Source: a virus (Duplodnaviria > Caudoviricetes). Taken from it: 64,000 nucleotides of DNA. Below are positions 7,350 through 56,200 of the stretch, in pieces. The stretch spans positions 430-64,429 of the IMG/VR virus record IMGVR_UViG_3300032214_001459, one strand, 5' to 3'. Below the pieces are notes generated by a model. That model saw only the letters and a program-made list of their open reading frames with translations. It was not told the origin of the DNA and made no database searches. How positions within the stretch are numbered: the stretch's first letter is position 1; each line of letters starts with the position of its first letter. Both the position numbers and the translations under genes were made by a program.

Positions 7350-7351
7350 AG

Positions 7352-7414
<63 letters not shown>

Positions 7415-7424
<10 letters not shown>

Positions 7425-7858
7425 TTGTTCTTTTTTATTTTATATGCCCACTCCGCGCTTCTTATCTTTCTGCATGCCCGACATTGCCTATTGTTGCCAT
7501 GCATGTAAGTATTTTCGGAATTGTACTCATGACCTTTGGGGCAATGTGTTTTAAGTGTTTGTGCTTTAACAAACCTACCCTTTGCGACGCAATCAGCCAT
7601 ATTCGATGCTTGTGTACCTGCGGTCAAATGGGCTGGGTTTACACATGGGGGGTTGTCACAAATATGCATAACCACTGGAGGATAAAAGCCATTGGCAAGG
7701 AGAAAAGAGTATCGATGGGCTCTTCCTTGTATGCCATTAACCTTGAAAGCTCCATACCCACCCCTGGTAAGTCCCCCGTTCCAAGTCCAGCATTCTTCAG
7801 GAGAGCCAGTGTGTACTTTGTCCCAAAACCTATCTGGTGTCTTATCTTTTGTGCTCAT
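7415..7858 (-). mobile_element. HNH homing endonuclease (HNH_3 type) inserted between two tRNA genes
   Basis: CWTW...GYG...AHRYS...VMHICDNPPCVNPAHL..GT..SNM..C and C-terminal THCPKGH...RQCRAC. Confidence 0.9.
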
Positions 7859-34243: not shown

Positions 34244-35626
34244 TTACGGTGCCGTTGGAGCGTTGTCGAATGTGACTTCAACGAATGCTTCTGGACGCTT
34301 GACAGCGAGAGCAAGTCTCTGTTCTGCCAAAACGACGATTGCGTTGCGCACGAAGAAGTCGCTGTGCTGTTCGCTGATGCGAATGCTTGCTTCTTCTCTG
34401 TCGTACAACTGAGCGCCGGTTCCGAACGCACCAACAAGTGCCTTGCCTTCGGTCATTGCTGGAGTGTCAATGATTGGCATTCTCCATACCTTTGGCTCGC
34501 CACCCATTGCAACTGACACAGCAACCAAGTACTGGCCATTGCCATCCTTGGTCAACTCGATGTCTTCCCAATCGTTCGGGTGCAACACGATACCCGATGG
34601 CTCGTAGTAAGCCAAGAAGGAGAGTGTTGCAGCACGACGGAGAGCGTCTGCCTTGGTGTCACCCATACCAGCTGTTGCCGAGTAGGCACCAGATGACCAT
34701 GAGTATTGCTGAACGTTTGGTGTGTTCATGATTCCGAGGAGGTTTTCGCCAGCACCGTTACCGTTGAGGATTTGATTATCCTCAAGAAGACGGAGACCGT
34801 ACATCAACTCGTTGTCGATGATTGAGCGCAACTGTGGCTCATCGGCGAGGACGTTGCGGTGTGCAGCTTCCCAGTGTGCCAATGTGCGGATAGGAGCTTG
34901 CTCACCAACGAATGCGAATGAAGATTGTGGCTTCAAACCAAATGCTGTTCCAGCTGATGTTCTTTCAGCAACTGATGATGCCGAGTTTACTCCAGCTCCA
35001 GCCTGAAGGGTTGTGAAACCAAGCTGACGGAAGTACTCGATAACTGCTGCGTTTGTTCTACGAACTGGGAACAAGTCACGAACACGCTTCGTACGCATCG
35101 GAGGAAGAACCATTGCATCGCGCTGAACTGTTCCAAACTCACCGAGGCGGCTGTTTGTTACTGCAGTTGTTGGCAATGCTGTGTAAATGTCCTTCTGCTG
35201 AATGCCGAAGTTGTGTGTTGTCAATGAAGTTGCAACCTGCCATGGTGATGACATGTTTGCACCGTTACGACCGTTAGCCAATGACTTGAATTCTGGTGAA
35301 TCCAAGAACATCTGACCAATTGTCTTAACTTCATGTGAAGAAAGTTGTCTGAAGTCTGCTGATGCAGCTGCGTATGCGGCTGAAACAGTTTCTCCTTGTG
35401 GCTGATTTGACCATGACTCAACTGAGCCCATTGTCTCGAGGTCGGACAAGAGTGACTTAATTTCCTTGATGTCTCTCATGTTCTTATCGAAAGCTGTTTT
35501 CTGGTCTGCCGAAACTACAACAGTTCCTTCTTCGATTTTGAATGAATCTGCAATGGCCTTGTTTTCTGCCATCTTACCGCGAAGAGCTGATTGCAACTCT
35601 TCTGTTCTTGCTGTGTCTTGCGACAT
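34244..35626 (-). CDS. Major capsid protein (HK97 fold)
   Basis: VRDLFP, KPQS, IRTLAHW, L.D.PQL.SII...L.YGL...ED.QILNGNG.G.NL.GI, F.RN.I..LAE.RLALAV.RPEAF. Confidence 0.95.
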   Translation of the reverse strand: MSQDTARTEELQSALRGKMAENKAIADSFKIEEGTVVVSADQKTAFDKNMRDIKEIKSLLSDLETMGSVESWSNQPQGETVSAAYAAASADFRQLSSHEVKTIGQMFLDSPEFKSLANGRNGANMSSPWQVATSLTTHNFGIQQKDIYTALPTTAVTNSRLGEFGTVQRDAMVLPPMRTKRVRDLFPVRRTNAAVIEYFRQLGFTTLQAGAGVNSASSVAERTSAGTAFGLKPQSSFAFVGEQAPIRTLAHWEAAHRNVLADEPQLRSIIDNELMYGLRLLEDNQILNGNGAGENLLGIMNTPNVQQYSWSSGAYSATAGMGDTKADALRRAATLSFLAYYEPSGIVLHPNDWEDIELTKDGNGQYLVAVSVAMGGEPKVWRMPIIDTPAMTEGKALVGAFGTGAQLYDREEASIRISEQHSDFFVRNAIVVLAEQRLALAVKRPEAFVEVTFDNAPTAP

Positions 35627-35778: not shown

Positions 35779-36855
35779 TTACTTTTTTTTGTTCAATCTT
35801 TGGCTCAATGGAACCTTTGGATTTTTCTTAGCAAGCACTGTTCTGACGGCAGATTCCATTCGTTCTTTTTCTCTGTTTTGAATGTTTCTGCGCCCAAGCG
35901 ATGTTGACCCAGTTCTGTTCGAATAATCAGTCATATTCGTGCATGGCATCCAGACGACTCGTCCGTTTTTGGACATTCTTCGGCTTATTCCTATGCAGCC
36001 AAGCTGACGCGAACGAGCTCTTGCTGACTCTTGGTCCAAGAACACGTCTTGCGCATTTTCATTGACATATTCAGGGCCGATTGATTTACCAGAAACAATT
36101 CCAACTCCAGGAACGCCAACTATCCCCCGTATCGGCTTTTCTTGCAGTTCCTCAAATTGTTGATTTGGGTTCATTCGCCTTCTTCCCTTTGCCCTGGTCT
36201 TTGGACCAGACGACTCGGGGACTACTGTTCTCCACTTAGGACCTTCTGCGAGGTTGGAAATTCTGTCCATCTCTTCCATTGTCGAACATGGCATCCAATT
36301 GCCGTCTTTATCCTTGTGCACACCAGAACAACCAATCATTTTTGCGACATTCATCGCTTCCTGAAGTTTTTTGTCTGACTTTATTCTTATTTCATTGAAT
36401 AGATTTAGCAATTTTGTTTCTGAATCAGAGTCAGCAAAGTAGCTTTTCCGCGCAGAACGACCAGCATCGGCTGCAGCCTGAGTGTTTGCAACAAACTGCT
36501 TTCCAAGTTTGCTTCCTTTTTTCTTTTTTGCATTTGTTGCTTTTTTCTGAGCGTCACTAAGCTTTGACCATGCCTTTTTAGGCAGATACCGAGTCGTTCC
36601 ACCATCCCTGATAGCTGGCTTGCCGTCGGATGTAGTCCATTTTTCTTTTGTCCAGTCAGAAAGAGAACGCTGGGTCTTGGACTTACCCCCACGATAACCA
36701 CCGCCATTTTTCTTGTATGCAGCAGCTAGGAGTTGCGCCTTCCTGGCCGACCATTGACCGCTGCGACCACCAAGGGAGCCATTCAAAATCCTATTTTTAA
36801 GGCTCTCCCGTAGCTTTGGCTTCGTATATGTCGATGCTCTTTTTCTTTCGCTCAT
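35779..36855 (-). CDS. Basic phage head-module protein with two GC.G....WMPC repeats
   Basis: YTKPKLRE...GQWSARKAQLLA..YK..GGGY, WTKEKW, RYLPKKAW; GCSGVH...WMPC and GCIGIS...WMPC. Confidence 0.75.
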   Translation of the reverse strand: MSERKRASTYTKPKLRESLKNRILNGSLGGRSGQWSARKAQLLAAAYKKNGGGYRGGKSKTQRSLSDWTKEKWTTSDGKPAIRDGGTTRYLPKKAWSKLSDAQKKATNAKKKKGSKLGKQFVANTQAAADAGRSARKSYFADSDSETKLLNLFNEIRIKSDKKLQEAMNVAKMIGCSGVHKDKDGNWMPCSTMEEMDRISNLAEGPKWRTVVPESSGPKTRAKGRRRMNPNQQFEELQEKPIRGIVGVPGVGIVSGKSIGPEYVNENAQDVFLDQESARARSRQLGCIGISRRMSKNGRVVWMPCTNMTDYSNRTGSTSLGRRNIQNREKERMESAVRTVLAKKNPKVPLSQRLNKKK

Positions 36856-37616: not shown

Positions 37617-39619
37617 TAGTTACCACCACGCACTACTGATTTTAGTTTTTCTTTTTGGGAGTTAAGTGATTCAATTCTTAGAGAAAATAGCTTGTCAATG
37701 ATGTTTATATGTATTTTTTCTCCAGTGGAGAGTCCATATTTGTCAAGTTCTCCAATCACTTCTTGCTTATTAATTGAACGAGCCCTGTTTATAAGCTGGG
37801 AAAGATACTTCATAAATATGATTCTTTGTTCAACTTTCAAGGCTTGGTAGTACTCTGAGTATGAAGGTATCAACTGTGATTCGTAGTAATTATCAATTGC
37901 CATTTTCATTCTTTTTGTGATTTCTATCTTCGACAAGTCAATAAGGCCTGACGAGTTATTGTTCGCAACGATTGCGCGAACCCCATCACTTGTCTCTACT
38001 GGGTATATCGATGTCATTGGTCTTTCTCTCTGGTCTGTTAGATAGTCAGACACCATGATTCTCGCAACATCAATAGGCTCTAGGTCATTAAATTTAATGT
38101 TTGGATTAAATTTGGAGCCAGGAATAACGCTCTCGATATCTTGCCTCATATACATTCTGTTATTGTTTTTTGCTGCAGCAAATACAACTTCCGGGGACTG
38201 CAGACCGAGCTTTCTCTGTATGTTTGAGGCAAATTTTTCAGCTAGATGTTGGAATGCTTTAGGGTCCTTGTATAGGAACCACTTACCGTCACCAGCCGCA
38301 ACAAGCGACACAGCATCTGAAAGTTCCTGTCTAGCGAGTATTGATGGGTCACGAAGTATTTGTTCGATTATCTCTGGTGAGATTTCTGAGAGTTTTCCAC
38401 CATTTGCAATATGGTTTATTGCTTGCTCGAGGTTGGTTATGAGTTTTACGTTCTTTTCTTCTTTTAGCGGGCTTGATGAGCTTGGTATCTTTGGTGAAGA
38501 CAGTTTTCTATTCTTTATAAGCTCATCCACCCACTTAGGGCTTCCTGAAATTAGATTATTTGGATTCTTTATTCCACGGAAATCTTCTGAGTACCTAATT
38601 CCATCGCCCATTTCGTTTGCGACGAACTTGAGACGTGACGAAGGGTCCTTCCCGATAGGAGTTGACATTGCTGTGCTTACAGTTCTTCCGAGTTTTCTTC
38701 TTTCTCCAACCGTTAGCTTGCGAGCTTTCTCCAGACTTATAGTGGAACCGCCTGGAATAACGTAGACAAGCGATGAGATGCCGGTATTTGAAAGCATTCC
38801 GAGCTCTTCGTTCCCAACATCTTCCATTGTGAGTAGCGAGCGAAGGTAAGTTGCTCCCTCCATGTCCCTGTTGTCTGGAATGGCTCTCAACACCTTGTCT
38901 GGAACAACTGGTTCTAGAACAAAACCATCTCGCCTAACCATTCTTCGGATTAGCTCATTGGATGATTTGTTGTATTTTCCAATTTCATCAACAAGTGAGG
39001 ATGAGCCAAGTCTTCTGGCTGAAGGGTTATCAAAAGACACCTTCGGTATTTGTGGAGCCCGTGATGAAATTATCGAGCTAGGTGCGGCAACTCCAGTTAT
39101 ATCTCTTCCACTAGTGCGGCTTACGTTGCCCCTTACGGCCCTGCGTACCGCGCTGATGGCAAGACCAAGCGGGGAAGGAATGTCAAAAAGCTTTGCTCCA
39201 CACGTAGATAGACGGGAGTCGGTGAATCGACCACCATACTGATATCCCTCTGGGCATCGGTATCCTCTATTTTGACCAGGCAGCGAGCCACCTATTCCGC
39301 TCGGCTTGCCTGGAGTTAATGTCCGGTAAACCGTGGAGCGAACTGGGGAGCGAAGTGGGTCGGAGTCTCCGGGTATTGCAAGACTAGTTAATGTCGAGCC
39401 AAGTTTTCTAACAGCGTTGGCCTTGAACTGAATTGAATTAGAGCTTTTATCTTTTCTTCTCGTATTTCCATTCAATCTAGATACTGCTTTGTAGTCAACG
39501 AATAGTTGATTAACCGCGCCTATGCCTCTTATTGCATCAGTGTTCGATTTAAGAAATAAATCAGCAACTATCGTCCGCTTTACCTTTACTTCAGGGCAGC
39601 AGTCTTGATTAATTTCCAC
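37616..39619 (-). CDS. Head-module protein with CPxG..FTD..C leader and degenerate HipA/PI3K-like kinase fold
   Basis: Likely GTG start at 39619 after GGAAGAG (ORF track 39712); LYK...LAEKFAS...LGL.SPEV...DYL.DQRER pattern. Confidence 0.65.
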   Translation of the reverse strand: MEINQDCCPEVKVKRTIVADLFLKSNTDAIRGIGAVNQLFVDYKAVSRLNGNTRRKDKSSNSIQFKANAVRKLGSTLTSLAIPGDSDPLRSPVRSTVYRTLTPGKPSGIGGSLPGQNRGYRCPEGYQYGGRFTDSRLSTCGAKLFDIPSPLGLAISAVRRAVRGNVSRTSGRDITGVAAPSSIISSRAPQIPKVSFDNPSARRLGSSSLVDEIGKYNKSSNELIRRMVRRDGFVLEPVVPDKVLRAIPDNRDMEGATYLRSLLTMEDVGNEELGMLSNTGISSLVYVIPGGSTISLEKARKLTVGERRKLGRTVSTAMSTPIGKDPSSRLKFVANEMGDGIRYSEDFRGIKNPNNLISGSPKWVDELIKNRKLSSPKIPSSSSPLKEEKNVKLITNLEQAINHIANGGKLSEISPEIIEQILRDPSILARQELSDAVSLVAAGDGKWFLYKDPKAFQHLAEKFASNIQRKLGLQSPEVVFAAAKNNNRMYMRQDIESVIPGSKFNPNIKFNDLEPIDVARIMVSDYLTDQRERPMTSIYPVETSDGVRAIVANNNSSGLIDLSKIEITKRMKMAIDNYYESQLIPSYSEYYQALKVEQRIIFMKYLSQLINRARSINKQEVIGELDKYGLSTGEKIHINIIDKLFSLRIESLNSQKEKLKSVVRGGN

Positions 39620-40253: not shown

Positions 40254-40753
40254 TATTCTTCAATCTCCCTGAGCATGGACATGGCTGTCCATATAGACTT
40301 TCTCTCCTCGGTTGAGGAAAATCGCATTAATTTGTTCTCAATAGACTTTACCACTTGTCCGTCGCAGCAAGATTTACCAGATAACTGCTCTATTGATTTA
40401 CTAAATCTTGAAGCATCTTCATTTTTCTGAGAAATACTTCTCTTATTTCTGCCAAGAGATGTTTGCACGGACACTCCATCTAGAACTTCTTTCGGTATCT
40501 CTTTACTTTTTTGAATAAATATCATTTCCCATGTTTCTTTATTCTCGCCATCGTCACCATCCCAGAAAACCTTGTGGAATGGGGTTGTTTTGATTCTCTT
40601 TATGTTTCGAGCTCTAGCGACATGTGACTGAAAATCTACCATCATTACTGTTCCATCATCTTTTTCTATTGCCCCATCCATGTCGTCTGCAGAGGCGTCC
40701 AAGATGTAATAAAGCTTGCTACCACCAGATGAGCCAACTAGTGCCGCTTTCAT
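40253..40753 (-). CDS. Hypothetical protein
   Basis: 166-aa ORF, coupled to neighbours. Confidence 0.7.
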   Translation of the reverse strand: MKAALVGSSGGSKLYYILDASADDMDGAIEKDDGTVMMVDFQSHVARARNIKRIKTTPFHKVFWDGDDGENKETWEMIFIQKSKEIPKEVLDGVSVQTSLGRNKRSISQKNEDASRFSKSIEQLSGKSCCDGQVVKSIENKLMRFSSTEERKSIWTAMSMLREIEE

Positions 40754-43700
40754 ATACCAGAGCCAACTTTCGAAACAACTCTTGGCTTCTGGCCCTTACG
40801 CATTTCCTTTAGAAGTTCTTCTACAGTCTTTTTTATCTCTGCAGCTATTTCTTTCTTCAAGAGAGTCTCAACATCTTCTATACCACGCGAAGCTTTTGAG
40901 TGGGTTCTTGGGTTTTCGATGTTCAATCCTTGTGGGTGAGCGATTTTTACCTTTGAGAAACCAAGCTTTGAGTACTTATCTTTGACTTTCTTCGACATTC
41001 TGTATTCGCGTAACTTTGCCATGCTTTCGGTATTTATCTGACCAGGACCACCAACTGAATAGAAGTAATTTATTTCTTCCTGAGTGAATCCCATATCCCT
41101 CAATGACGCGGCAATTGACTCATCATTCACTACGTCCGAGATGTCTTCTTTTTCGCTTAATTTTGACAGCTTGGAATATGGGTAGTTAATTGAATCAACT
41201 TCATCTGCATCAAAACCACCAAGTATGTGTGCTTCGAAATTCTCATTTCCCTTTGTTTTGCTGTTACGGGATACTCTTGAAAAATCTCCGTCGACAGATG
41301 AGGCAAGAAGATTAACTAGCGCATCAGAGGAATCTGAGTTGGTATTAGGATTTTGAGAGTACGAAATGGCATGAGCTATATCGTCCCTGGATGTAGAGTC
41401 CATCCTTACCGGCCTGTGTCCGTTCTTTATACCGGAGCCCCTACCGTATGATGTCCTCTTTGATACCTCTGGCTTCAGAACTATCTCGACATCACCAAGG
41501 GAAGTCAATCCGTCTCCAACTATATCGCTATCTTGCACCTCAAATACTGCATCTGGGCCAACGTTGCCAACTCTATTTTTTATAACATCATTTTTCTTTT
41601 TCTGAATATCAGATTTATGAACCAGATATCCAGAGACGGGCATAAGGTCGTCTCTGACGTCCTTGGTAAGCCCTACGCTTTCGTAGTATTTTCGGATTCT
41701 TCCATATTCATCTTTGTTCTTACCAAAATCTGGTGATTCAAAACCTTTGAACGAAGAGAACCATTCAGCAGCAACGTCTTTCTTTGTGCTTTCTTTTTTA
41801 TCTCTATTTTTACCAACAGAGCGACCAGTGCTTTCGTCTACCACTGTTTTGTTATTGGTTGTTTTCTTGGTTGCGCCTGACTGACGCACTGGTACTTCTG
41901 GCTTCTCTATTTGAGCACCGGAAGCAAGTGAGAAATCTTGGAATCTGGTTTCGCCTATATCCTCAATACCCGGCTCAACCGGAATATTAATGCGTTCTGC
42001 CATTCTTGTCATGCGGTCATATAGCTTCCAACGCTTTTTGGGGTCAGTTTCAACTCTGTAGTCGTCATAGACCTTGTGAATTACTTCCTTTTCCACTGCA
42101 GACTGTGGAGTATGGAATTGCAACTCAAACCTGGTTCCATCTGGATGTACTGCGGCAATATTTATCCCCTGATATGGGTCGCCTGTTTTCCAATAGTTTT
42201 TAACAGTAAGTTTATATCCAGCTGACTGCAATTCATCGATTACAGATTTTGCTCCGCTCACATAGTTTTCCGGAGTGTATGTCATCGTGTACCTTATTAC
42301 ATCAGACATGTCTGCAGCTGCCTCTTCGGCCGTCCTGCTTCCTCTTTCGTCATTTATCTTTCTTGCTAGAGATTTAACTGATTTAAATCGTGCAGCTAGA
42401 CCAATCATTACAGCGCCATGCTTGTTGGAAAGGTCGATTAGGGTTTTAGTTATTTCTTTTTCTACAGGCTTTAGTTTTTCTCGTTGCTTGTCTGCTGCGT
42501 CAACAACATCTTCTGCGTACTTTCCGCTTTCTGGCAGTGGATTGTCCGGCTCAACTAGGTCGTATCCACCGTAGTTTGACTTACCTGGCTTCTGTTCGCC
42601 CCATGGTTTTTCAATCTTTCTAAGGTCTATGACTCGAGCTTGGATTGTCTGATTTTCAAGAGCCCTATTCATGGCGACCCTGTTATGACCATCCGATATG
42701 TACATCTTCCCGTCTACATCGATTACGAGGTTCGGGTAATATCCCTCTCTGAATGGCTCCTGACCAGATACAACTTTGTCTATAGAAGAACCTTTTAGGT
42801 GTGATTCAGTTGGAAGAATGTCTGATGATAAATCAACTTCAGTTACCTCAACTCCATCCCACCCATCCCATGCTTTTGATTCTTCAACTGATTTAACCTC
42901 GGAGTACTCAGGTTCCCATTTCATTCCATACTCACGAACAGACCTATCTCTGTTTTCCTTTAGGCCAGGAGACCTGCGCTCCCTCTTTGCGCTCAATCCC
43001 TCGATGCTTACTGGATATAGCTCAGCATCTTTAATTTTTTGCGCTAAATCTTTCACAGAATCTTGCGCGGTTTTTATATGCGCATCGAACTCCTCTTTGG
43101 ACATTGGGGTAGTTTCACCATCCTCGTAAGGAACAACCTTTCCGACAGTTTTTCCTTTTATCTCCATGTGCTCCTGGAAAACCTTTGCAAGAGTCAATGA
43201 TTCAAAAATTGATGTTTGTAGTTCATTTACCTGAACTTCGATTTTTTCATTTTCCGGAAGATGGTCATTAAGCATCTTTATTGCTGCCCACCTATGGTGG
43301 CCATCAACTACATATCCATCCCTAGAGGTTAATATTGCCCCTTGGAACCATGCGTTTTCAAGGAATGCATCTCTATTTTTATTAAACTCATCCGAACCAG
43401 GTGTGCCCCAAGATTCTCTCAAAGTCATGTATTCGTTATACATGTTTTCTGTCTGTTGATGTATCTGAATGTTGCGTAGTTGTTTTTGAGAAGCGTAAAG
43501 CTCATCTGGCTTTTTAGACTTACGCACTACAGATTGCTCTCCATCCGGAAGAACTTTCTTTAGGAATTCAATCAATTCTGGTTCTGTTGATACTTCAACC
43601 TTGGACCATTCTGTATTTTCAAAAACCCACTGTTTGTCTTCTTCTGAAACATCTGCAAACTTACTTGGATTTCCGAGTTTTTTTGAAATATCTTTATATC

Positions 43701-46700
43701 TCTTAGAGTCTTCATCTGAAAGGCCTGGCTTAGATTCATACTTTCCAGAAACGTGACCATACTTGAGTGCTCTCATCGCTGGCGAGTTTGCGCTCTTTGC
43801 AGGACCACCACTTTGTGGCATGTTTTCTCTTTTTACACCGATATTTTCGCTACAGAATACGTTCTTCTTTTTTTCATACAATGCACAAAGGTCTATGTCG
43901 TGTGTTTCCATGAAGTTCTTGATGTAGCTATTCTTCTCTGCGCCAGAAAGACCCAGCTTGTCTGCTTCATCTGATGCAACAGACTTCAGCTCAACTTCTG
44001 TCTGTAGCGCGGCATTCTTAACCATTTTGCGCTCACCCTTGTCAGGTACCTCTACTTCGTAACCAAGCGCCATTAGGGCTATTGCTCGGTCGGCAGAGTC
44101 GGTTATGTAGATTGGATTATCGGACAGCACGCTTTGTTGGCTAGAGCGCTCTAAACCAAAATCTGCTTTTAATCTTTCATCATCAAGCCTGTCTAATGCT
44201 CGACCACCAATTCCAGCCTCACGCAACTTGATGAAATCGTCTTTTGCACTTTTTGCTGTAGCGGCTTGAGATTTTCTATCTCTAAAATTGTTAACTCTTC
44301 TTGAAAGTCTGCTAGTTCTTCTTGTTTCTCCATCGGTGGAAACAGCCCCAGAAGAAAGACCAAGTGAGCGCACTTTCCCAGAAGTTGACAAATCTGATAT
44401 CTCGTCTTCATTCATCCGGACGCGAACTCTTCTGTCAAAACCGGAATGCAATTTTTGAGCAGCAGTTTCTATTCTGTTTATTATCTGCTCATTTGATTCA
44501 GTATTTAGTATCTCCTCAACTGAAACGGCGAGATTTCTATCCTCGTCCATCAAGGCCGCAATAGAGGATTTTAACGATTCAGACCTTTCCCCTGGTTTTC
44601 CAATTACTTCACTGTATTTCTCATGTCTTTTAGCTCTCAGGGACTCAGTTGTAGATTCGGAGCCAGATGAAAGCGTTAAAAACTTTTCTGAAGAAGTTTC
44701 ACCAAATTCTGCTCCAGCTGTAGAAACCTCAGAGACGATTGACTCGCTGGTCTCAGTCACCTTTATCGCATCATCAGACTTCGTTCCAGATACTTCATCT
44801 TTTCTCTTAACTGCATGCCTGTCGGCGACGAGCTGTATCTTCTTCTTTGCACCTTGTCTCCAGATTGCATCACCGGGACCATCACCAATCGATTTTGACA
44901 AATCATCAAGAACGTCAACAGTGTCCTTTTGCGATGAAATCTCTACTATGAGACTTCCGTCCTTATCTCTTCCTACAACGCGCAACTTTCCTGGTGGTAT
45001 TACGAATTGCTGCTCATCGCCCTTCTTGGCTAACGGGAATAGCCCCCTGTCGCCTTCTTTGACCTGAATAACAACACGCTTTTTCTTACTACCCTTTTCC
45101 GGCTTCCCAGGCTTCATTGAGCGTGAAAGAACCTTGCCTTGACCAAACGAGTCGATATCTATTTCTTTGCCTGGCTTGACACGAGAGAGCTTTGATGAAT
45201 CTAAGAAAACTTCCATCTCGAATGGAGTTGTTATATCCGAAGCATCAATAGCTTCCATTGCAGGTATGAGTATATTTTCAACCTGCTCATCTAGTGAGCC
45301 CTCATCTACCGATGATGGGTCGGAGTCAAGGCCGAGCCTCTTTAACCTGTTGTTTCTCTTGTTTATGGCTCTTCCAACAACAACTTGTTTTTCTGGCTCA
45401 AGCATCTGCGTTATCTCTGCAGTATTGAAGTCATCTATTTCTTTTACTGCTTCGAACTGCTGCTTGGTGATATTCCGCCTGTGCTTGGCTCTTTCCTTCT
45501 TTGCATTTAGGGCAATTTGTTCTTTGCTCTTCATCTTTTGAGGCTTGAGTTTTCCCCTCTTAGCCTCATCAACAGCCTTGCGTGATGCTGTAATTTCTTT
45601 GGTAATTTCTGCTTTCAATTCATTTCGGATTGCTCTCTCTGGTCTTGTGTCGCCAGCGGCTCTCTGATTTACTATGTGCTGCTGGATAAATATCTCCCTG
45701 TCAGCAACTGCGGTTATGTATTCATCACTGTCGGGCTTAAGCGAGGAAGCCTTCAGGTCGTAGTCTGCAATTGTCTTCATCAGTGACTTTTCATCTAGAG
45801 ATTCAGCCTCGCCGCGTAGGGAGTCAATACGAGCTTCTGTCTCTCGGCGTTTAATCATTTCTTCTGTTGCTGGTTTTTTGGCCTTATTAATCTCAAGCGC
45901 CATATCAGTTATTTCTTTATCTGACTTAGACTTTCCGTCAGAGTTGAAATCTCTATTTTTTGCAATTTCTTTTTTCTTCTTTTCCTCCAATAAGCGAAGC
46001 GGTGATTTTATTCTCTCTATTTCTTCGTCTATAGATTCAAGGGGAAGCCCGGCTTTTTCAATATCACTTCTCTCTTTTTCAAGATTGCTCAATATATCTT
46101 CCCGTATTTCAATCTCAAAAATAGTGTCAGCAAGTTTTTCGGCCAGTCCGTTTTGGTCTAAATCTTTTATTTCTTCCCTGTGCGCAGCTAGTTCGCGTTC
46201 TTCGCGTTTTATGGCAATTGCCTTTTTATCTAATTCAATTGCAGAGCGTAGATGCTTTCTGACAGGAAGAACATCTTCGCCTCTTTCATACGGCGAGAAG
46301 TATGACTCCTCGAGCTTCTCGAGCATTTCAAGGTCGGTTACTGCTCTGGCCTCAGAAGCTTTTGCTCCTATTGCGTCATCCATGAACCCAAGCGCATCAT
46401 CTATGTCGTCACCGAATATTAGACCTTCTTCCCTTAGTCCCCAAAGTTCGGCCGTTGATTCAAGGGCGTAAACCTCCATGTTCCCGCCTCTTAGCGAACC
46501 TTGTGGATAGCTTCCAGCAAGAAATGCAACATTTTCAATTTTTGACATTGCTTCTTCGAGCGAGCTTATGTTTATATCGTCCTGAGAGCCGACCACCAGT
46601 GCCGAAAGGTCCATTCCAGTTAATTTTCTAAAATCAGAAACCTCTTTAACAGCTCCGGTAAGTTTCCCTCCCTTGACCACCGGAACCTCTATGTGCCCAA

Positions 46701-48453
46701 GGGTGTCTATCTGTTGTTTTACTGCCGTAAGGAATGCTTCGCCCTGGATTGTATGGGCAATTTCGTGCAACATAATATGGCGGGCAAAAGAACGTGGCCC
46801 ATCAATTAATCCAGCCATGCCACGTGCTGTGTATTCGGTGTTAATAAGAAAGTCGGCTACAGAAGCCATTGCTTCAGCATCAGTCTTTGCGCCAACTGCT
46901 GAAACAACCAGTCTCTCGCTCGGAGACATGTTGGGGATGCCATCCTCGCCCTCCTGGTTGGTCATTATCTGTTCAAGATTTATTCTTATAACCGATTTTA
47001 TATTTGCGCCTTTAGTGTCAGCATCCCAAAGCGTATCCGCCTCAGAGTTATGAGGGAGAGGAGCTTGACGAAACTGCACCGTTCCTATCGTCCTCATGTG
47101 TTCTGGTCGAATTACAAATTGTTCAAGCAGAGAGTCAAGCATTGCCCTTTCTGTCTCGTAAAATCTTTTTTTATCAGCAGTAAATAATGCTAGTTTTTCT
47201 TCATCAGTTAGCGATGACCATTCAGGGATTGATTCAAGTCTTGATGAAATAAATTCATTTACTTCGCTCTCAGACAACCTTCCCTCAATATTTATATCCC
47301 AAATTCCTCTATTTGATAATATTTTAAGTAATGCATGCCTGTCTGCGTTTACTGCTCTTTGCTCCGGAGTGAAATCACCAGTGACCATTCTTGACTCAAG
47401 CTTTTGAATAACACTCTCAGAGCGAGCAAGATTCTTCTGTGCGATTACGGTTGCATTCTTAAACCATCTCAACCTACCTGGAACGTCAACAGTCTCTGCC
47501 GGGATTGTCGGTATCCTTTCACCTGTCTCTAAATCGAAAGATGGACTTCTTCCAGGCAGTTCGGTGCCTGGTCTGGCGATGCCAAGTCTTTCTCTCCATG
47601 TTGACTTCGCTCCAGAGGCAAGTGAAAGCGAATCGTCATTAACTTTCATTAAATCTGAAATCTTTTCAGCTATAAATTTAGCTGCCCTTTCAGCACTGAT
47701 GCCAAAACAATTTGAACCAAGATGGTCGGTGAACTGGTTAGCTGCTGGCGTACCTGGTGGGCACCTAAACTTATTGGCGGCATCCCTCATTATCCCGAAT
47801 CGTCCTGCGGTCCTAGCTAGGAGATTTCCGCCAGGAATCCTCGACTCAAGTGATTGGCCAGGAAGTCCAGCCTTAAACTCCATCTTTGGGTTACTTACGT
47901 AGTTGCTTTTTTTTCTTCTCTGCGCGCGCGACAAACCAAGACGTGGATATGCCATATCTATATTAACTTCCGACTCAGGTATTACGTCGCCTGTTTTTTT
48001 ATTAACCTGATACTTAGTGAACTGAATCTGTGGTTTTTCTTTTCTTATCTTTTGTGCAGCCTGGAAGTTAATATCCGGTTCTGTTTTAATCCACCCAAAA
48101 TTTGCATCCAGATTCATGGAGCGCTTTGACTTCCAACTAGGGTACAAAACTAGACTGCGACCCTCTTCCCATGCCTGGTTGTCCTCAACGCGAATCCCTG
48201 GAGAAGTTTCAGTAACCCCGGGTTTTGTGGTTCCAGTAAATTCACGCTTCTTATTATCAGTATCTTCATACGTTGGCTTTTTACCCATTGCCGCCTTAAC
48301 TGCAACATCGGCATTAAGTCTTGAAGAACTGAGAGACTGAACTACAGACGCACGAAATTCAATCGCTTTAGAATTGAAATTATTGCAGCACGATAGAGGC
48401 GATATCAATCGTTGAGAAACGATTACTCGTGTCTTGTTTCTATCACCCGTCAT
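40750..48453 (-). CDS. 2567-aa multidomain protein: zincin, ART-like, two ParB-like domains, RelA/SpoT-like nucleotidyltransferase
   Basis: HEIAH...ESTAELW; DEQQFVIPPG; DGHHRWAA; DGHNRVA; RFKSVKSLARK/DVIRY/YQGIN/FELQFHT; four xL(S/A)SG linkers. Confidence 0.85.
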   Translation of the reverse strand: MTGDRNKTRVIVSQRLISPLSCCNNFNSKAIEFRASVVQSLSSSRLNADVAVKAAMGKKPTYEDTDNKKREFTGTTKPGVTETSPGIRVEDNQAWEEGRSLVLYPSWKSKRSMNLDANFGWIKTEPDINFQAAQKIRKEKPQIQFTKYQVNKKTGDVIPESEVNIDMAYPRLGLSRAQRRKKSNYVSNPKMEFKAGLPGQSLESRIPGGNLLARTAGRFGIMRDAANKFRCPPGTPAANQFTDHLGSNCFGISAERAAKFIAEKISDLMKVNDDSLSLASGAKSTWRERLGIARPGTELPGRSPSFDLETGERIPTIPAETVDVPGRLRWFKNATVIAQKNLARSESVIQKLESRMVTGDFTPEQRAVNADRHALLKILSNRGIWDINIEGRLSESEVNEFISSRLESIPEWSSLTDEEKLALFTADKKRFYETERAMLDSLLEQFVIRPEHMRTIGTVQFRQAPLPHNSEADTLWDADTKGANIKSVIRINLEQIMTNQEGEDGIPNMSPSERLVVSAVGAKTDAEAMASVADFLINTEYTARGMAGLIDGPRSFARHIMLHEIAHTIQGEAFLTAVKQQIDTLGHIEVPVVKGGKLTGAVKEVSDFRKLTGMDLSALVVGSQDDINISSLEEAMSKIENVAFLAGSYPQGSLRGGNMEVYALESTAELWGLREEGLIFGDDIDDALGFMDDAIGAKASEARAVTDLEMLEKLEESYFSPYERGEDVLPVRKHLRSAIELDKKAIAIKREERELAAHREEIKDLDQNGLAEKLADTIFEIEIREDILSNLEKERSDIEKAGLPLESIDEEIERIKSPLRLLEEKKKKEIAKNRDFNSDGKSKSDKEITDMALEINKAKKPATEEMIKRRETEARIDSLRGEAESLDEKSLMKTIADYDLKASSLKPDSDEYITAVADREIFIQQHIVNQRAAGDTRPERAIRNELKAEITKEITASRKAVDEAKRGKLKPQKMKSKEQIALNAKKERAKHRRNITKQQFEAVKEIDDFNTAEITQMLEPEKQVVVGRAINKRNNRLKRLGLDSDPSSVDEGSLDEQVENILIPAMEAIDASDITTPFEMEVFLDSSKLSRVKPGKEIDIDSFGQGKVLSRSMKPGKPEKGSKKKRVVIQVKEGDRGLFPLAKKGDEQQFVIPPGKLRVVGRDKDGSLIVEISSQKDTVDVLDDLSKSIGDGPGDAIWRQGAKKKIQLVADRHAVKRKDEVSGTKSDDAIKVTETSESIVSEVSTAGAEFGETSSEKFLTLSSGSESTTESLRAKRHEKYSEVIGKPGERSESLKSSIAALMDEDRNLAVSVEEILNTESNEQIINRIETAAQKLHSGFDRRVRVRMNEDEISDLSTSGKVRSLGLSSGAVSTDGETRRTSRLSRRVNNFRDRKSQAATAKSAKDDFIKLREAGIGGRALDRLDDERLKADFGLERSSQQSVLSDNPIYITDSADRAIALMALGYEVEVPDKGERKMVKNAALQTEVELKSVASDEADKLGLSGAEKNSYIKNFMETHDIDLCALYEKKKNVFCSENIGVKRENMPQSGGPAKSANSPAMRALKYGHVSGKYESKPGLSDEDSKRYKDISKKLGNPSKFADVSEEDKQWVFENTEWSKVEVSTEPELIEFLKKVLPDGEQSVVRKSKKPDELYASQKQLRNIQIHQQTENMYNEYMTLRESWGTPGSDEFNKNRDAFLENAWFQGAILTSRDGYVVDGHHRWAAIKMLNDHLPENEKIEVQVNELQTSIFESLTLAKVFQEHMEIKGKTVGKVVPYEDGETTPMSKEEFDAHIKTAQDSVKDLAQKIKDAELYPVSIEGLSAKRERRSPGLKENRDRSVREYGMKWEPEYSEVKSVEESKAWDGWDGVEVTEVDLSSDILPTESHLKGSSIDKVVSGQEPFREGYYPNLVIDVDGKMYISDGHNRVAMNRALENQTIQARVIDLRKIEKPWGEQKPGKSNYGGYDLVEPDNPLPESGKYAEDVVDAADKQREKLKPVEKEITKTLIDLSNKHGAVMIGLAARFKSVKSLARKINDERGSRTAEEAAADMSDVIRYTMTYTPENYVSGAKSVIDELQSAGYKLTVKNYWKTGDPYQGINIAAVHPDGTRFELQFHTPQSAVEKEVIHKVYDDYRVETDPKKRWKLYDRMTRMAERINIPVEPGIEDIGETRFQDFSLASGAQIEKPEVPVRQSGATKKTTNNKTVVDESTGRSVGKNRDKKESTKKDVAAEWFSSFKGFESPDFGKNKDEYGRIRKYYESVGLTKDVRDDLMPVSGYLVHKSDIQKKKNDVIKNRVGNVGPDAVFEVQDSDIVGDGLTSLGDVEIVLKPEVSKRTSYGRGSGIKNGHRPVRMDSTSRDDIAHAISYSQNPNTNSDSSDALVNLLASSVDGDFSRVSRNSKTKGNENFEAHILGGFDADEVDSINYPYSKLSKLSEKEDISDVVNDESIAASLRDMGFTQEEINYFYSVGGPGQINTESMAKLREYRMSKKVKDKYSKLGFSKVKIAHPQGLNIENPRTHSKASRGIEDVETLLKKEIAAEIKKTVEELLKEMRKGQKPRVVSKVGSGI

Positions 48454-50257: not shown

Positions 50258-53200
50258 TTACTTCTTGTCTTTATCTTTCTTAAGGATAACTCTTTTACCG
50301 AGTTCGGAGGCGTCATCTCCATACAGAGTCCTGCCTTCCTCCCTCAATCTCTTTGTTGCATTGCGTAATTGTTCAGCACTAAATATGTCATCAATCTTGT
50401 AGTTAGTTCCAAAAATTTCATTAAAACGATTTACAACATTCTGTAGTTCGCCCTGACTGAATCTTCTTTCGTCACCAGTTTTCTTTGAGAATGTGGCTCC
50501 CTTTCTGGCAGCAACACCCTTGTGGGAGACCGTGAAGTCAGAAGAATTAAGGATGTAGTCCCTATTCCGTCTAGTGTTTTTGGCTTTATCGGCAGCGTGC
50601 TTTGACTGAGTAAATTCATACAGGGCTTCATACACGGAGTGCTTCGATGCTGCCAGCTCTTGGTCTAGCTTTTTGCCAGATTCATCTTTCTTCCATACCG
50701 ACTTTGCATCAGGAATCATCCCTGTTCTAATCATCTCATTTATATATGTAGTTGGGACTCCACCGGCCTCCCAGTTCCTGGCAATCTCTCTCGTATTCAG
50801 GCCGACATCGTCAACCCCGAAAGACTCGACCATTCTCCTCTTAAGCTCTTCATGCCACTTATCGCTCTTATCGATACCAAGTGATTCAAGGAGCTGGTCT
50901 ACGTCAAACTGCTCTCGGCTGGTCTTGTCTGATGGGGCTGAAGCTGCTTCTACGACAGACTGCTTAACCAGGTCGCTTGGAGTGTCATCTCCACCAAATA
51001 CTGCCTCTTCAAGAAGCATCTCTTCGGCCATTGAACCAAATTCAGACTCACCGCGCTTCTTGCTGAATATTCCAGTAGACCTGAATTTTCCGGTTTCACT
51101 TACTTCGCCAAGTGAGGCATATTCCTTTTGACTTATTACGCCGTTCTCTTCCTTGTCAATCCAATAAGGGAATGCGTCCTTGCCGAATGTCTCGATGATG
51201 AATCTGTCGCGCATATTGGCTCTACCAAGGTTTTCGACGAACTTTTCGGATGGGGTCATTTCACTGACTCCTTCTTCTTTTTCTGACGTTGGGGCGAATA
51301 GTCTCCAGGCATCAAACCCATCCTGCTTGCCAATTTCTGAAAGCAAGAAACGAACTGCGTCGTGGGTTACGCCAGCGTCGTCATCTGAAAGTTTTGCAAT
51401 ATCTGATTTACCTAGAGCCAGCATCTTCCCAAGCTCGTCGTTGTTCAGCGGACGTGTCTGTGTCCAACGCGCAATCATTCTACTGTTTGGGTTGTCTGGG
51501 TCCGATGGGTAGCTAGAGAACTCGGTTGGAATTCTTACTGCATCCCTAAGTTTTGAAACAGGGACAAACCATTCGTCTGGGTTTACTTCATCTTTTATTT
51601 GATTTGATGAAACTTTCCCAATTTTAACCTTTGGTCTTGCGGCCATGCCCTTAGATACTGAATTGATTACATTCTTTATTTCGATGTTTTTCCGTTCAGC
51701 TGTTGTGTCTTCTGGGTCAAGTGCGATTCCGCGCTCTCTAACTCCACGCCAAAACTTCATTGCGTATTCGAGTTTGCGCTTTGCCTTATCGTTTCTTCTA
51801 GGGTCACCGTCAATGCGTATTGCCGCAAGGTCGCGAGGGCCAGCTATATTCGCGGCAAATTTCTTTCCGCTAACACGCTGATTTTTTGCTCCAGCACCGA
51901 TATCGTCGCTGCCACTTGAAAGGCTTATTGCTCTCAGTCTTCGCGCGTATCTACCCTCGGGGGTATTTGCCCCAGAGGCGAGAGCTAGGTCGTCGAATTC
52001 TTCTGCAGATGGAGCTGGCTTGCGCTTTTTAGGGACCTTTTTTGAACGAAGTATGTTCCTATCTGCAACGCTTTGTCTGTCTTGTTCGTTGAATGGAAGG
52101 CGTCTATTTGCTCTATTTGTCTTCTTTTTAGCTCCTGAAGAAAGAGACAGAGAAAGTAAATCAGAATCGTCGCCGTTATCTCCGTCGTATTCATCGTCAT
52201 CCGGTCCGGCTACATCTTTGAAATCAGGGTCACCAGAGTCAAAACCGCCAGATTCGTCCTCCACTTCTGGTTCATCATCTTCTTCTGGAGCGACATCTTT
52301 AGTCTTTCCCTGTGACTTGACGTATCTATCGAAAGACTCATCCAATCTCTTTCTGCGTTCTTTTCTGGCAGCATCGCGTGCTTCTGTATCACCAGAGTAA
52401 GGAACGTAGAAACCAGCAGGGGCCTGAAGCTCGTCATATATTCCATCTGGATTTTCTGCAATTTTATCTTTTGCACTTTTTATAGATGCATTTTGTGAAT
52501 CATCAAAATAAAGTTTTGCAAGAACTGCGCCAATATCTATTTGCTCTTGAGCTCTGGTTATTGCAATATATACCTTGTTGTGCTCTTCTCTGCGCATCAA
52601 TTGCAGCTGTCTCTCGACAGCAAGTCTGTCCTTTGGACTTAACTTTGCTAATTCTTCTTCTGGTATTACTGGGACCATGTCTTCAGGATTTTTGAAATCA
52701 TCAGCGAGTCTGACCCTCTTCCACTCCCTGCCCTTGGAAACATGAACCGTCATAATGTCGGTATCTGTGTTCCCTTCCGTGGCAAGTTGTCTAACCCTAT
52801 TTCCTAGTTCATTGGCAAGACGCGCAGTTTCTTCGCTGTCTTTTCCTTGTATAAAGAACCCAGGAAGCGAAGCTCTTGGCACAGAACTATCTGGTAAATC
52901 ACCTTTCATTGGTGGGACAAAATCATCGGGTGTGTCTGATGGGAATGTCTGAGCTGTACCAACTTGCTGTATTAGTCCCTGCCTAAATTCAATTACAGCA
53001 TCTGGGTATTCTGCTTTCATCTTCTTTATGACTTTTGATATATCTCCGTGATAATCAATTTTTCCTGGTTTCCCATCTTCGATAGGGCCCCATGTTTTTT
53101 TAACTTTGTTCCATCTTCTGAACTTGTACTTTCCTCCATTTGCTCCTTCGCCAGCGATTATCAATGCCCCGGATGGCTTCCCATCATCTCCAATATGAAG

Positions 53201-56200
53201 TTTTACGAACACCTCACCATCAGACACGCTCTCTTCTTTTTTAGGTATTATCCAAGAGATTTTCTGGCTACTTCCAGCTTTTGTTCCAGGCTTAAGTTTC
53301 CCAACTCTGTCCATCTCGTCGGTAGTTATATAATCTTTACCAGATTCCATGTCAGGAAGGTTTATACCCTCGCGCATTGGTCTTAATCCCTGATACTTAA
53401 TCTCATTGCCATTTATGTCTGTATATTTTTGGCCCTGTGGACGGAGAAGGTCTTTAAAGAACCTAGCCCCCTTCGCATCTCCTCTTACTCCGCCATCCTT
53501 TGATTTAGGGTATGCAAGGTTGTGTAAAGTCCGGAGTTCTGATTCTCCACCCTTAATCATCTTGTCAATTTTTGCCAACATCTCGTCTTTTGATGGGTAT
53601 CTGCCCTTTTTCTTGTCAAATCTCCATACGTCTTTAAGTAGTTTCGATGGTTTTGGTCTTCCTTCGATTCCAAACTTCTTATCTAGGTCGCCAACAATCC
53701 AGTCGAGCTGAGTGAAGAAATCAAGAAACTTTTCATGCGTATCCGCAGGTATGCCTATGGCTGGAATTTTTCCGTCAGCTCCACCTGGGGCGTATTCATC
53801 TCTAAGCTCGTTGATGGACTTGAGCATCGAGTCTCTTCCATCTTTTTCCAGTATTTCTATAAGGTCTACAGCGACACCATCGAGGGTGTACTTCTCGGAA
53901 ACTGTTCTCAATCTTCCAGCTAGCTCTTGTGGATTTTTTATATCTTCTATTCCGTCAAGGTCCAGGTATGCAATTTGATGCGCATTGATGCCATCCTGGA
54001 TTACCTTCAATGCTTCAACCATTACTCCTGAGTTAGTCGAAGTTAGAACAGCATCGGCGCCAGTCATGTCCTCCACTATCTGACCTTCAGCGCGTGGAAC
54101 ATGTTCGTCGTAAAGTTTTGAAATGATGTCTTTTACTTCTTTTTCGTTTTTGCCCTTAAAGTCGACCGCTCTTCCGCCAAGCTTGTATTTAACTTCTATG
54201 AATCTAAGTTTCTTTTCAAGGTCTTTTTTAGGAAGTATTTTCCCATCTGGTCCGTTTATGTTGAGCGCGTTTATAACAACATTTTGCGCCTCGCCGACAA
54301 CATGGTGCCATATGTTTTTTTCTGGTGTTCCCATGTTTTGATAAAAGTTAAAATCGTCTATATTGCCTTGCATCAGCACGACATTGGCCAAATATGCAGG
54401 CATTGCTCCATACCGGAATGAACGTGTTAGAGGAAGTCTGAATGTTGCATTAGCTTTCTCCAGGGCATCCATGGCTCCTCTGAACCCATAGATTGCTTGA
54501 CGTGAGTCGCCGACCATTATTATTGGCATGTTCTTTGCATTGTCGGCAAGTACTTTTGCCAATACGGGGTTTACGTCTTGGGCTTCGTCGAACATGAATA
54601 CATCAAGAGGCTTATCACTCGTAACAGAAACAATCGATACAGTTCCGGTTACTTGTCTATTACCTGACAGCTCACCCTTTTTTGTTTCTTTCTTCGATGG
54701 AGGATTTAGCTTCCGTATTACTGCGGCAACCTTTTCTCCAGTTTCTGGAATCTTGAATTCTACAAGGTCACCAACCTTTATCTTTCCTGCATCCATGTCC
54801 TCAACGGTTCCAAGTTTGACTTTATCAAATACAGTTTCGTTTGGTCTATGGCCAATCAAACCTTTGTCATACCTGAGGTCTGGATTTGTTAGGGCCCACA
54901 TCTTGATTTGATAGTCCTGCGGGATGAGCACGTTTGATTTTGGGTCAACTGTTTCATCCCAAAGCATTTGTGCATATTGAACCATTTTTTCATCGATTGA
55001 ATCTTCGGTTGGTACTGGTTCGCCCTTTTGTAATGCCTGAATTTTTTCTATATCACGAAGTAGGAAATGTTGTTTTGACAGCTTCTCATCCGAACTTTCA
55101 GCAAACCTGCCAAGAGCTTTTTTGAGATTTTGGGAAATAGTAAAACCATCATCAGTTTCTTCGTCAACAATCCCATCTTTAGAAAGGCGTTCTGCGATAT
55201 TCGGTGCAGAGTCATAGCTTGTGTACCCAAGCTCTCTGTACCCTGGTATCTCTCCTGTGAATTCCTTTGTTTCTCCCTCAAACGTGGTTGCAACGTTTAC
55301 GGTGTTACGTTTTGCTCCTCGCAACTTCTTAGAGTCTCTTGGACCAACTCCAAGCTGTATCTTTCTAGTCGTTCCAGCCCCATAGAACGCATCTCCAGTT
55401 CCAAGAACAAGTGACCAATAAGCTATTTGGTTACCGGTTGCAACACCTGTATTTCTAGGCATTACTCTGTTGCCGTCTTTTGCATTTCCCCTGTTAAATA
55501 CTGTGTAGTAAATTTGCTTACCAGGGTAAAGTGCTGCAACAGCACGAGCATTCTGCTTGAGGTTAGTGGTCTTTCCGGAACCAGCGCCTGCACCAATTGC
55601 AACAATTCCTGATGTCTCACTTTCCAACATATGAACAAGCGTGTCTATTGAAGCCTTTTGTTGTTCTGTTGGTTCAAATTCATCAGGAAGGAACTTATAC
55701 TTTTCTCTATACGAGACAGAGTCGTCTAGTCTTGGAATCGTTGTTTTACCGTCAAGGCTGACGATTGGTTTTGCACCACTCGAAAGAGAAAGTGCTCCAG
55801 ATTCATCAAGAATCCTTCCACTGGAGTCTCTTTGAGTTATGCCTGAGCCATATTCTTTTTCATCGCCAAAGTATCTAAGTTCTTTTACTTTTCTAACACC
55901 AACTTGAGTGCCAGATGAAAGAGCGATTACAGAGTCCTTTGCCTCATCGGTTGCAGCGCCAACAGCTTCTGTGGCTTTTTCTGTAACATCTGGTTTACCT
56001 TTGCGCTCAGTGTCTGGAACACCTGCAAGTCTCCTCATCGTTGGAGACCTATCCATAATGTAATCAGCGGCTTGCTGCGCTTTTTCCATCGCCTTAATAA
56101 ATGCGCCTGGGTCTTCTTTGAGGTTTGAAATCCAACTCTTTATATAGACAACATGGTCTTTTCTTACTTCTGGTGTTATTCCGACTGCTGCTAGAAGAAA

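Follow-up and report, generated by a model that had tools for sequence, protein, structure and literature searches.

A RelA/SpoT-type synthetase domain inside a giant phage head-module protein and a candidate inhibitor gene encoded apart from it

Introduction

How does a RelA/SpoT-type alarmone synthetase come to lie inside a giant protein encoded among the head genes of a phage, what could it do there and what could hold it in check? This question is raised by a stretch of 64,000 nucleotides of a virus (Caudoviricetes), which is called the window here and represents nearly the entire 64,429-bp IMG/VR virus record IMGVR_UViG_3300032214_001459 (positions 430 to 64,429). On its minus strand lies a giant open reading frame (ORF), P0001, whose product of 2567 amino acids (aa) carries a RelA/SpoT-homologue (RSH) synthetase domain, referred to as SYNTH in the following. 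An initial reading of the sequence, termed the original prediction here, had pointed to four synthetase motifs in a head-module protein between positions 42000 and 42450 and proposed an injected host-shutoff enzyme. All four motifs are found in the single minus-strand frame of P0001 (aa 2022-2118), and the span corresponds to aa 2002-2152, the core of the SYNTH domain. The motifs that had been noted are thus confirmed, and the interpretation attached to them is borne out in part.

The reading put forward here, which is considered moderately probable, is that an intact SYNTH domain of the Apk/EAS clade resides in a giant head protein, which would be packaged and would serve as a takeover enzyme. 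An 83-aa protein would act as its inhibitor, and the gene of the latter was relocated while the giant gene was fused to its neighbor. Phage head proteins with alarmone-synthetase toxins have been characterized for the MuF proteins of prophages, where their role in infection is stated as unknown (PMC10083569). Furthermore, RelA/SpoT domains have been described in polyvalent proteins of phages, alongside ParB domains of the DdrB type, as well as in MuF fusions (Iyer et al., 2017; PMC5512222). Due to this precedent the general kind is already known. The SYNTH domain of P0001 belongs to this known kind, and it is the arrangement of the genes that is unusual.

The synthetase domain and its relatives

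The closest solved structure is SaEAS from Streptomyces albidoflavus (8VX3; PMC12691689), which was matched with an E-value of 4e-15 (phmmer against the PDB) and 25% identity over ~195 residues. Among the NCBIfam models, the last ~200 positions of the XopAD/skwp family (NF041399) match the SYNTH domain (E 1.7e-26, 91.9 bits), a family that is listed as carrying EAS-type domains (PMC12691689). Two PHROG families match with their C-terminal parts, namely phrog_2859 (E 4.4e-39) and phrog_7625, annotated as "head morphogenesis" (E 3e-24). In a library of 1.84 billion proteins, 3488 clusters match the domain at E<=1e-3. Many of these clusters consist of giant proteins, in which the domain is located either at the extreme C-terminus or internally. 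The similarity is well above anything that chance would produce.

Relatives in phages are numerous as well. Using tblastn, 128 GenBank phage records were found, with the C-termini of MuF toxins matching at E 1e-20 to 4e-14 and an identity of ~28-34% among the 30 records listed. Nearly all annotated phage matches are C-termini of minor head or head-morphogenesis proteins. The statement in the original prediction that RelA/SpoT domains occur as C-terminal toxins of MuF head proteins is thus true of these relatives, but it does not extend to the carrier P0001, which is not a MuF protein.

The motifs place the domain more closely. For adenosine 3'-pyrophosphokinases a signature of the Apk/EAS type has been described, consisting of RYT in syn2, GxN in syn3 and YH in syn4 (Paulet et al., PMC12226406). 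P0001 carries this clade signature (RYT / GxN / [YF]H) as IRYT, GIN and QFH. The asparagine and histidine that had been noted as substitutions relative to canonical synthetases (GxN and Q-[FY]-H) are indeed present, but they are not deviations; they represent the normal signature of the Apk/EAS clade. Judged by sequence and structural model, SYNTH is an RSH synthetase of the toxin and exported clade, to which Apk1/Tas1, the MuF toxin Apk2 and SaEAS belong.

Fold and active site

Folding of the single sequence gave a low predicted local distance difference test (pLDDT) score of 58.4. An AlphaFold model based on an alignment of 47 sequences, which reached a pLDDT of 93.2, was used instead. A Foldseek search with this model yielded 37 matches at E<=0.001, and the matches listed are RSH synthetases. 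Here, 8VX3 ranks first (E 2e-12, TM score 0.78-0.83), followed by Tas1/Apk1 (6OX6), RelP, RelQ and CapRel. In VIA-align, 8VX3 reaches a Z-score of 20.7 with a root-mean-square deviation of 2.5 Å over 194 residues, and every other synthetase stays at Z <=12.6: RelP, RelQ, Tas1 and CapRel (7ZTB) span 11.5-12.6, with CapRel at 11.5, and FaRel2 (8PU3) reaches 7.0. The predicted structure therefore displays the nucleotidyltransferase-type fold that the original prediction had assumed and not the different fold by which that prediction had proposed to refute it. Together with the match to 8VX3, this bears out a RelA/SpoT-type synthetase.

For SaEAS, the ATP-binding residues have been reported as R124, K154, N169, E182 and Q184, and the crystallized protein is a D121A mutant (PMC12691689). 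The residues of both proteins were paired using the phmmer alignment with 8VX3, in which the numbering of the chain is consistent with a start at G36. D121, R124, N169, E182 and Q184 of SaEAS pair with D2051, R2054, N2098, E2110 and Q2112 of P0001. All five are invariant across the 47 aligned sequences, where they belong to a total of 14 invariant positions. By its conserved residues the SYNTH domain is catalytically intact and would be expected to act as an enzyme.

The carrier protein and its place in the head module

The features discussed in this study are collected in Table 1.

Table 1. Location of the synthetase domain, its carrier and the associated genes in the window (aa, positions in P0001).
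Feature	Position (aa)	Coordinates	Strand	Basis or remark
P0001, giant ORF carrying the SYNTH domain	2567 aa in total	40750..48453	minus	ORF call
RSH synthetase (SYNTH) domain	~1973-2168	41950..42537	minus	extent by structure alignment
Motif RFKSVKSLARKI	2022-2033	42355..42390	minus	K2024 and K2032 invariant in 47 aligned sequences
Motif MSDVIRYT	2049-2056	42286..42309	minus	contains catalytic Asp and syn2 RYT
Motif YQGIN	2094-2098	42160..42174	minus	syn3 GxN signature
Motif FELQFHTPQS	2109-2118	42100..42129	minus	syn4 E-x-Q-F-H signature
C-terminal module	2254-2550	40804..41694	minus	homologous to separate 303-350-aa gene of relatives
83-aa ORF, candidate IapK/Tis1-like inhibitor		6936..7187	minus	profile of Apk2-linked small ORFs
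166-aa gene directly downstream of P0001		40253..40753	minus	start overlaps P0001 stop
ParB-like nuclease-type region, DGHHRW motif	1691-1766	43156..43383	minus	Pfam ParBc_2 match under threshold
Second DGHxR motif	1921-1925	42679..42693	minus	putatively ParB-like, by motif
HEIAH (HExxH) motif	563-567	46753..46767	minus	putative zincin-like peptidase; no Pfam match
3610-aa polyvalent protein		50258..61090	minus	directly after portal gene
Portal protein gene		61187..63256	minus	one end of head module
Major head protein gene		34244..35626	minus	other end of head module

The location in a head module was recognized correctly, since the P0001 gene lies between the portal and the major head protein genes. 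On the minus strand the portal gene is followed by the genes of the 3610-aa protein, a 555-aa protein, P0001, proteins of 166, 214, 698, 254 and 358 aa, and the major head protein. This position of the giant gene is kept in all related loci. The 3610-aa neighbor starts with an N-terminal prohead protease (Peptidase_S78), followed by ArdC-N, MPTase-PolyVal, a weak match to sigma-70 region 4 and a UvrD-type helicase. The MPTase-PolyVal match of Pfam is found in this neighbor and not in P0001.

P0001 itself has the trait of a phage polyvalent protein: the SYNTH domain is combined with a ParB-like region below the Pfam threshold and a conserved HExxH motif, in a gene between the portal and capsid genes. 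The HExxH motif is invariant in all giant homologues (8/8), along with a conserved E..AEL..LR segment ~95 aa downstream. The second DGHxR motif falls into a module (aa ~1808-1950), which accompanies SYNTH in the relatives P0008 and P0009. The remainder of P0001, cut into seven pieces, gave weak sub-threshold Pfam matches alone, and for the C-terminal 368 residues neither a Pfam family of note nor a usable protein-atlas match was obtained. In metagenomes, homologues of P0001 are 1923-3815 aa long.

Some further observations concern the same proteins. A motif RCPxG(6)FTD(5)C is common to P0001 (aa ~229-250; 47704..47766, minus) and the 698-aa head-module protein (39197..39259, minus), and a weak wider similarity between both covers ~250 residues (BLASTP E 4e-5). 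Judged by these matches, the shared region may be a common N-terminal module. The gene just upstream of that of the major head protein (35779..36855, minus) encodes a 358-aa product with DUF3721 (PF12518, E 3.5e-13). The major head protein shares 46-48% identity with its counterparts in Gordonia phages, e.g. GMA6 and ChisanaKitsune; the G+C content of the window is ~39-47%.

Relatives and the gene fusion

Six IMG/VR contigs carry the SYNTH domain at 69-99% identity; one of them, the complete relative G001, comprises 170,425 bp and is rated 100% complete. A tyrosine integrase was not found in G001, in a search that did not extend to serine recombinases. This suggests that the phage may be virulent, unlike the temperate phages of the MuF toxins described.

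In the window ~399 residues of P0001 lie beyond the SYNTH domain, which is therefore internal. The giant ORF continues in the same way past SYNTH in all four close loci that span the gene (L001, L002, L004 and L005). More distant relatives, whose loci were fetched using P0007 and P0009 as queries, are built differently, and here the domain is C-terminal (P0006-P0009, P0013, P0014 and L016-L024). In these relatives the giant gene ending with SYNTH is followed by an ORF of 79-84 aa and by genes encoding 303-350, 104-146 and 216-222 aa, with a gap or overlap of 0-4 nucleotides between the giant gene and the small ORF in the four loci for which the ORFs were read (L016, L017, L020 and L023).

A comparison by BLASTP relates both arrangements. 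The 303-350-aa gene of the relatives corresponds to aa 2254-2550 of P0001 (31-37% identity, E 2e-39 to 2e-65). The counterpart of the 104-146-aa gene is the 166-aa gene of the window (36-40% identity), and that of the 216-222-aa gene is its 214-aa gene. Since the relatives encode separately what P0001 contains as its C-terminal module, sequence comparison indicates that in the clade of the window an in-frame fusion has joined the giant gene to the head gene behind it, by which SYNTH has become internal.

The small ORF between the giant gene and the next head gene is gone from the clade of the window, and a profile scan of P0001 and of the fused giants of L002 and L005 revealed no remnant of an inhibitor gene. 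The linker that follows SYNTH differs in length among the relatives. Insertions of ~250-340 residues are present between SYNTH and the C-terminal module in the giant ORF of L004 (aa ~2194-2532) and in P0004 (aa ~2199-2455), and from these alignments the linker looks like an insertion hotspot.

A candidate inhibitor gene outside the head module

In six known Apk2-type loci, an ORF of 68-72 aa directly follows the toxin gene in every case (6/6). A gene of ~137-144 aa is next in five of the six, and in four its annotation reads HD or (p)ppGpp-type phosphohydrolase. This gene order agrees with the published arrangement of IapK and Aph1 (PMC10083569; PMC12226406).

A profile of the Apk2-linked small ORFs, scanned over the record of the window and over G001, finds an ORF of 83 aa and its counterpart in G001. 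With deeper profiles, the hhalign probability of the 83-aa ORF against the IapK-like proteins rose from 60% via 83.5% to 90.4% (E 1.4e-6). Over the 2,558 ORFs of nine loci, the six best matches of the IapK-like profile all belong to the family of the 83-aa ORF (12.7-14.9 bits). As a control, 25,580 shuffled ORFs were scanned, of which none reached the real scores (top shuffle 10.0 bits). A 48-aa plus-strand frame (36608-36676) that also matched the profile (E 0.019, and 0.21 in a later scan) was dismissed as noise.

The position of the homologues, which are 72-84 aa long with outliers of 96 and 114 aa, links this family to the SYNTH domain. The small ORFs behind the SYNTH-ending gene in L016, L017, L020 and L023 are homologous to the 83-aa ORF at 40-50% identity (BLASTP, E 4e-14 to 4e-23), and those in L022 and L024 were assigned to the family by a hidden Markov model. 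A homologue is thus present immediately after the SYNTH-ending gene in 6/6 relatives that reach the end of this gene; L018, L019 and L021 end before it and were not scored. L020, L022 and L024 share identical scores and positions and may therefore represent a single phage.

The 83-aa gene of the window does not directly follow the toxin domain; it shares the strand of P0001 and is separated from the end of the latter by ~33.5 kb. It is surrounded by genes for a carbamoyltransferase, a 2OG-Fe(II) oxygenase, a thioredoxin-like protein and an HNH endonuclease, with a tRNA-Met gene alongside. By sequence similarity, the 83-aa ORF is a likely IapK-type partner of SYNTH that has been moved out of the head module in the clade of the window. 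By analogy to the known pairs, its product probably holds SYNTH in check in the producing cell. Literature searches, which were not designed to exclude such work, brought up nothing published on this lineage of phages or on IapK-like genes that are unlinked.

The tRNA-Met and HNH endonuclease genes are located immediately upstream of the 83-aa ORF (7351..7858, minus), and the 83-aa gene could owe its relocation in part to a homing endonuclease. The auxiliary genes nearby (2595..5755, minus) encode a Nol-like carbamoyltransferase (E 1e-106) and a 2OG-Fe(II) oxygenase-like protein.

A hydrolase acting as antitoxin had not been obvious next to the domain in the original prediction, and none was detected next to P0001. 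An HD_4 hydrolase of the Aph1 type was found neither in the record of the window (0/1) nor in G001 (0/1), and MazG and NUDIX were likewise absent from both records (0/2 each).

Proposed function and alternatives

The SYNTH domain would move pyrophosphate from ATP onto the 3'-OH of a purine nucleotide, which would yield (p)ppApp and/or (p)ppGpp, and toxicity would arise from nucleotide depletion and alarmone overload. The giant protein would be packaged in the capsid and released with the DNA into the next host, where it would serve as a takeover enzyme. This packaging and release is inferred from the gene position, from the protease-fused neighbor as well as from the precedent of MuF and polyvalent proteins, and by this analogy it is the most likely route. 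In the producing cell, the IapK/Tis1-like 83-aa protein would block SYNTH.

Several points weigh against this reading. Firstly, the Pfam model RelA_SpoT (PF04607) matches the domain over 104/113 model positions with 17.5 bits, below the gathering cut-off of 27 (E 0.0052), and a six-frame scan of the record of the window gave no match to it. The original prediction thus recognized something that Pfam would not call. This clade is divergent, and it is the solved homologue and the fold that support membership in the RSH family. Secondly, K154 of SaEAS pairs with a threonine and a nearly invariant lysine follows two residues later, which renders this contact uncertain. Thirdly, SaEAS is reported to be promiscuous with the same motifs, two other exported enzymes make (p)ppGpp only (PMC12691689), and a conversion of the Apk2 motifs left the specificity unswitched (PMC12226406). 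Due to this, the product of SYNTH is not callable from the sequence. Fourthly, neither P0001 nor a six-frame scan of the record of the window and the complete relative (0/2) revealed a MuF domain (Phage_Mu_F), and no other capsid-targeting domain was recognized in P0001 or in the rest of the record, whose completeness is estimated by CheckV at ~40%. Finally, the similarity of the 83-aa ORF to the IapK-like proteins is limited to 24-26 C-terminal columns, and a seventh member of the small-ORF family, in L016, was missed by the IapK profile.

An extension of this reading concerns timing. The synthetase of the virion would arrive without its inhibitor, and the separately expressed 83-aa protein would later end the shock of alarmones and ATP depletion, so that the takeover would take the form of a timed "pulse". 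Here, the inhibitor gene, which lies outside the late head operon, would be expressed from a region with metabolic and nuclease genes. Its product would first stop the enzyme, allowing replication to proceed, and would later silence the newly made giant protein until it is packaged. This scenario is speculative and regarded as doubtful. If true, it would represent a self-limited takeover in a large, apparently integrase-less phage, unlike the prophage-borne Apk2 systems described so far.

In another explanation, the enzyme is not ejected and acts late in the producing cell or, after lysis, outside of it, like an exported synthetase or an interbacterial toxin. SaEAS, as the nearest enzyme with a solved structure, is reported to work extracellularly (PMC12691689), the role and injection of MuF-fused toxins are stated as unknown (PMC10083569), and the lack of a recognized capsid-targeting domain in P0001 and the record would fit as well. 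On the contrary, the conserved position between the portal and capsid genes in all related loci and the fusion of the neighboring giant protein to a prohead protease argue against it, and a cognate inhibitor is sensible if the producer must keep the enzyme silent. This explanation is considered unlikely.

The original prediction had also raised the modification of tRNA, in which case SYNTH would be a tRNA 3'-CCA pyrophosphokinase like CapRel, FaRel2 and PhRel2, translation would be shut off and the phage's own tRNAs would become relevant. The fold is common to CapRel and FaRel2, the motifs alone leave the acceptor unfixed, and the window encodes five tRNAs. These are tRNA-Met (7351-7424), tRNA-Arg(TCT) (27207-27283), tRNA-Asn (28677-28752), tRNA-Ser(TGA) (29049-29138) and tRNA-Thr(TGT) (29237-29311). 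Nevertheless, tRNA targeting is not favored and appears very unlikely, since the Z-scores of the two tRNA-modifying enzymes stay far below that of the nucleotide-making SaEAS, the nearest relative by a wide margin. Furthermore, the phage MuF relatives that were assayed are reported to make (p)ppApp only (PMC12226406), tRNA-modifying small alarmone synthetases that are toxic (toxSAS) are described as incapable, in general, of acting on nucleotides (PMC12691689), and PADLOC gave no match to its models of defense toxSAS.

Marginally less credible still is a catalytically dead remnant that would serve the giant protein merely as a part of its structure or cargo. The domain is now internal, the immunity-like gene is unlinked from it and the Pfam score is under the threshold, all of which would fit a remnant. 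This is opposed by the 14 positions without variation among the 47 sequences, to which the catalytic Asp, Arg, Asn, Glu and Gln belong, by the 69-99% identity of SYNTH in the six related phage contigs and by the retention of the inhibitor-like gene in both the record of the window and the complete relative.

The least probable proposal is that of the 166-aa gene directly downstream as the antitoxin: although the stop of the giant gene and its own start overlap, it belongs to no known family and its 10 homologues are restricted to this phage group, the hhalign probabilities of 0.3% against IapK-like and 0.2% against Aph1-like proteins argue against it, as do the 104-146-aa homologues, which hold the same place two genes after SYNTH where a different small ORF adjoins the domain. 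As these homologues keep its place behind a separate small ORF, the 166-aa gene behaves as a fixed, conserved gene of the head module. Searches against Pfam, PHROG, PADLOC and the PDB gave no match of note for its product, and a complex prediction of SYNTH with the 166-aa protein, which had no control runs, scored 0.00 and speaks neither for nor against binding.

A third giant ORF is present in the window. It encodes 2706 aa (12060..20180, minus) and has PHROG matches to an acetyltransferase and, at aa 147-431, to "DNA polymerase exonuclease subunit".

Significance

With a ~170-kb phage for which no tyrosine integrase was detected and the same domain in a giant head-module protein, this lineage offers a natural comparison for the role of such enzymes in infection. 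Sister clades keep the small gene behind the toxin domain, whereas the clade of the window has unlinked the small gene and fused the toxin gene to the next head gene. Setting both clades side by side could reveal the products of these enzymes, the time of their silencing and whether ejection takes place. For annotation two lessons arise: Pfam misses this clade of SYNTH domains, and an adjacent small gene is an unsafe guess for an antitoxin.

Comparison with known systems

Among the known enzymes, SaEAS is the most similar to the SYNTH domain. Both share D, R, N, E and Q in the active site as well as the motifs RYT, GxN and QFH (PMC12691689). They differ at K154 of SaEAS, which is opposite a threonine in SYNTH. 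In contrast to P0001, in which the domain is buried in a 2567-aa phage protein, SaEAS is a small, Sec-exported bacterial enzyme without an immunity gene, whereas the phage of the window has an inhibitor-like gene.

The T6SS (type VI secretion system) effector Apk1/Tas1, which is paired with Tis1 (6OX6), displays the same fold as SYNTH (Z 12.5, 23% identity) and the same named active-site residues. The pair of the window resembles it in the logic of a toxin and a protein inhibitor, provided that the 83-aa protein does act as one. Unlike P0001, Apk1/Tas1 is delivered via PAAR and the T6SS, and it is more distant from SYNTH than SaEAS is. The type III effector XopAD/skwp shares with P0001 the domain that forms its C-terminus and represents the best NCBIfam match. 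This likeness is confined to the terminal domain: the SKWP repeats are absent from P0001, and the 91.9 bits compare with a family cut-off of 2000 bits.

Closer in setting are the Apk2 MuF toxins of temperate phages, which are accompanied by IapK/Tis1-like and Aph1 immunity proteins (PMC10083569; PMC12226406). Like P0001, they carry a homologous SYNTH domain on a protein of the head module, with ~30-33% identity between the domains. A small inhibitor-like ORF of ~70-84 aa is present both in the Apk2 loci and in the phage of the window, and the relatives of the window have it directly after the toxin domain, as the Apk2 loci do. P0001 differs from Apk2 in that it lacks a MuF domain, is a carrier ~5x longer and has the domain in an internal position following a gene fusion. 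Furthermore, in the phage of the window the inhibitor-like gene lies ~33 kb away, an HD hydrolase was not detected, and the complete 170-kb relative yielded no tyrosine integrase, which sets it apart from the Apk2 loci.

The polyvalent proteins described by Iyer et al. (2017) correspond to P0001 in the accumulation of many effector-type domains within one giant protein of the head module, in the combination of RelA/SpoT with a ParB-like domain and in the proximity of a zincin-type peptidase (PMC5512222). Here, the differences lie in the details of the domains, since in the case of P0001 the Pfam domain MPTase-PolyVal is found in the neighboring 3610-aa protein only and the ParB call is below the threshold. 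They also lie in the hosts, as the cases in that account are (pro)phages of Helicobacter-type Epsilonproteobacteria and Spirochaetes, unlike the phage of the window.

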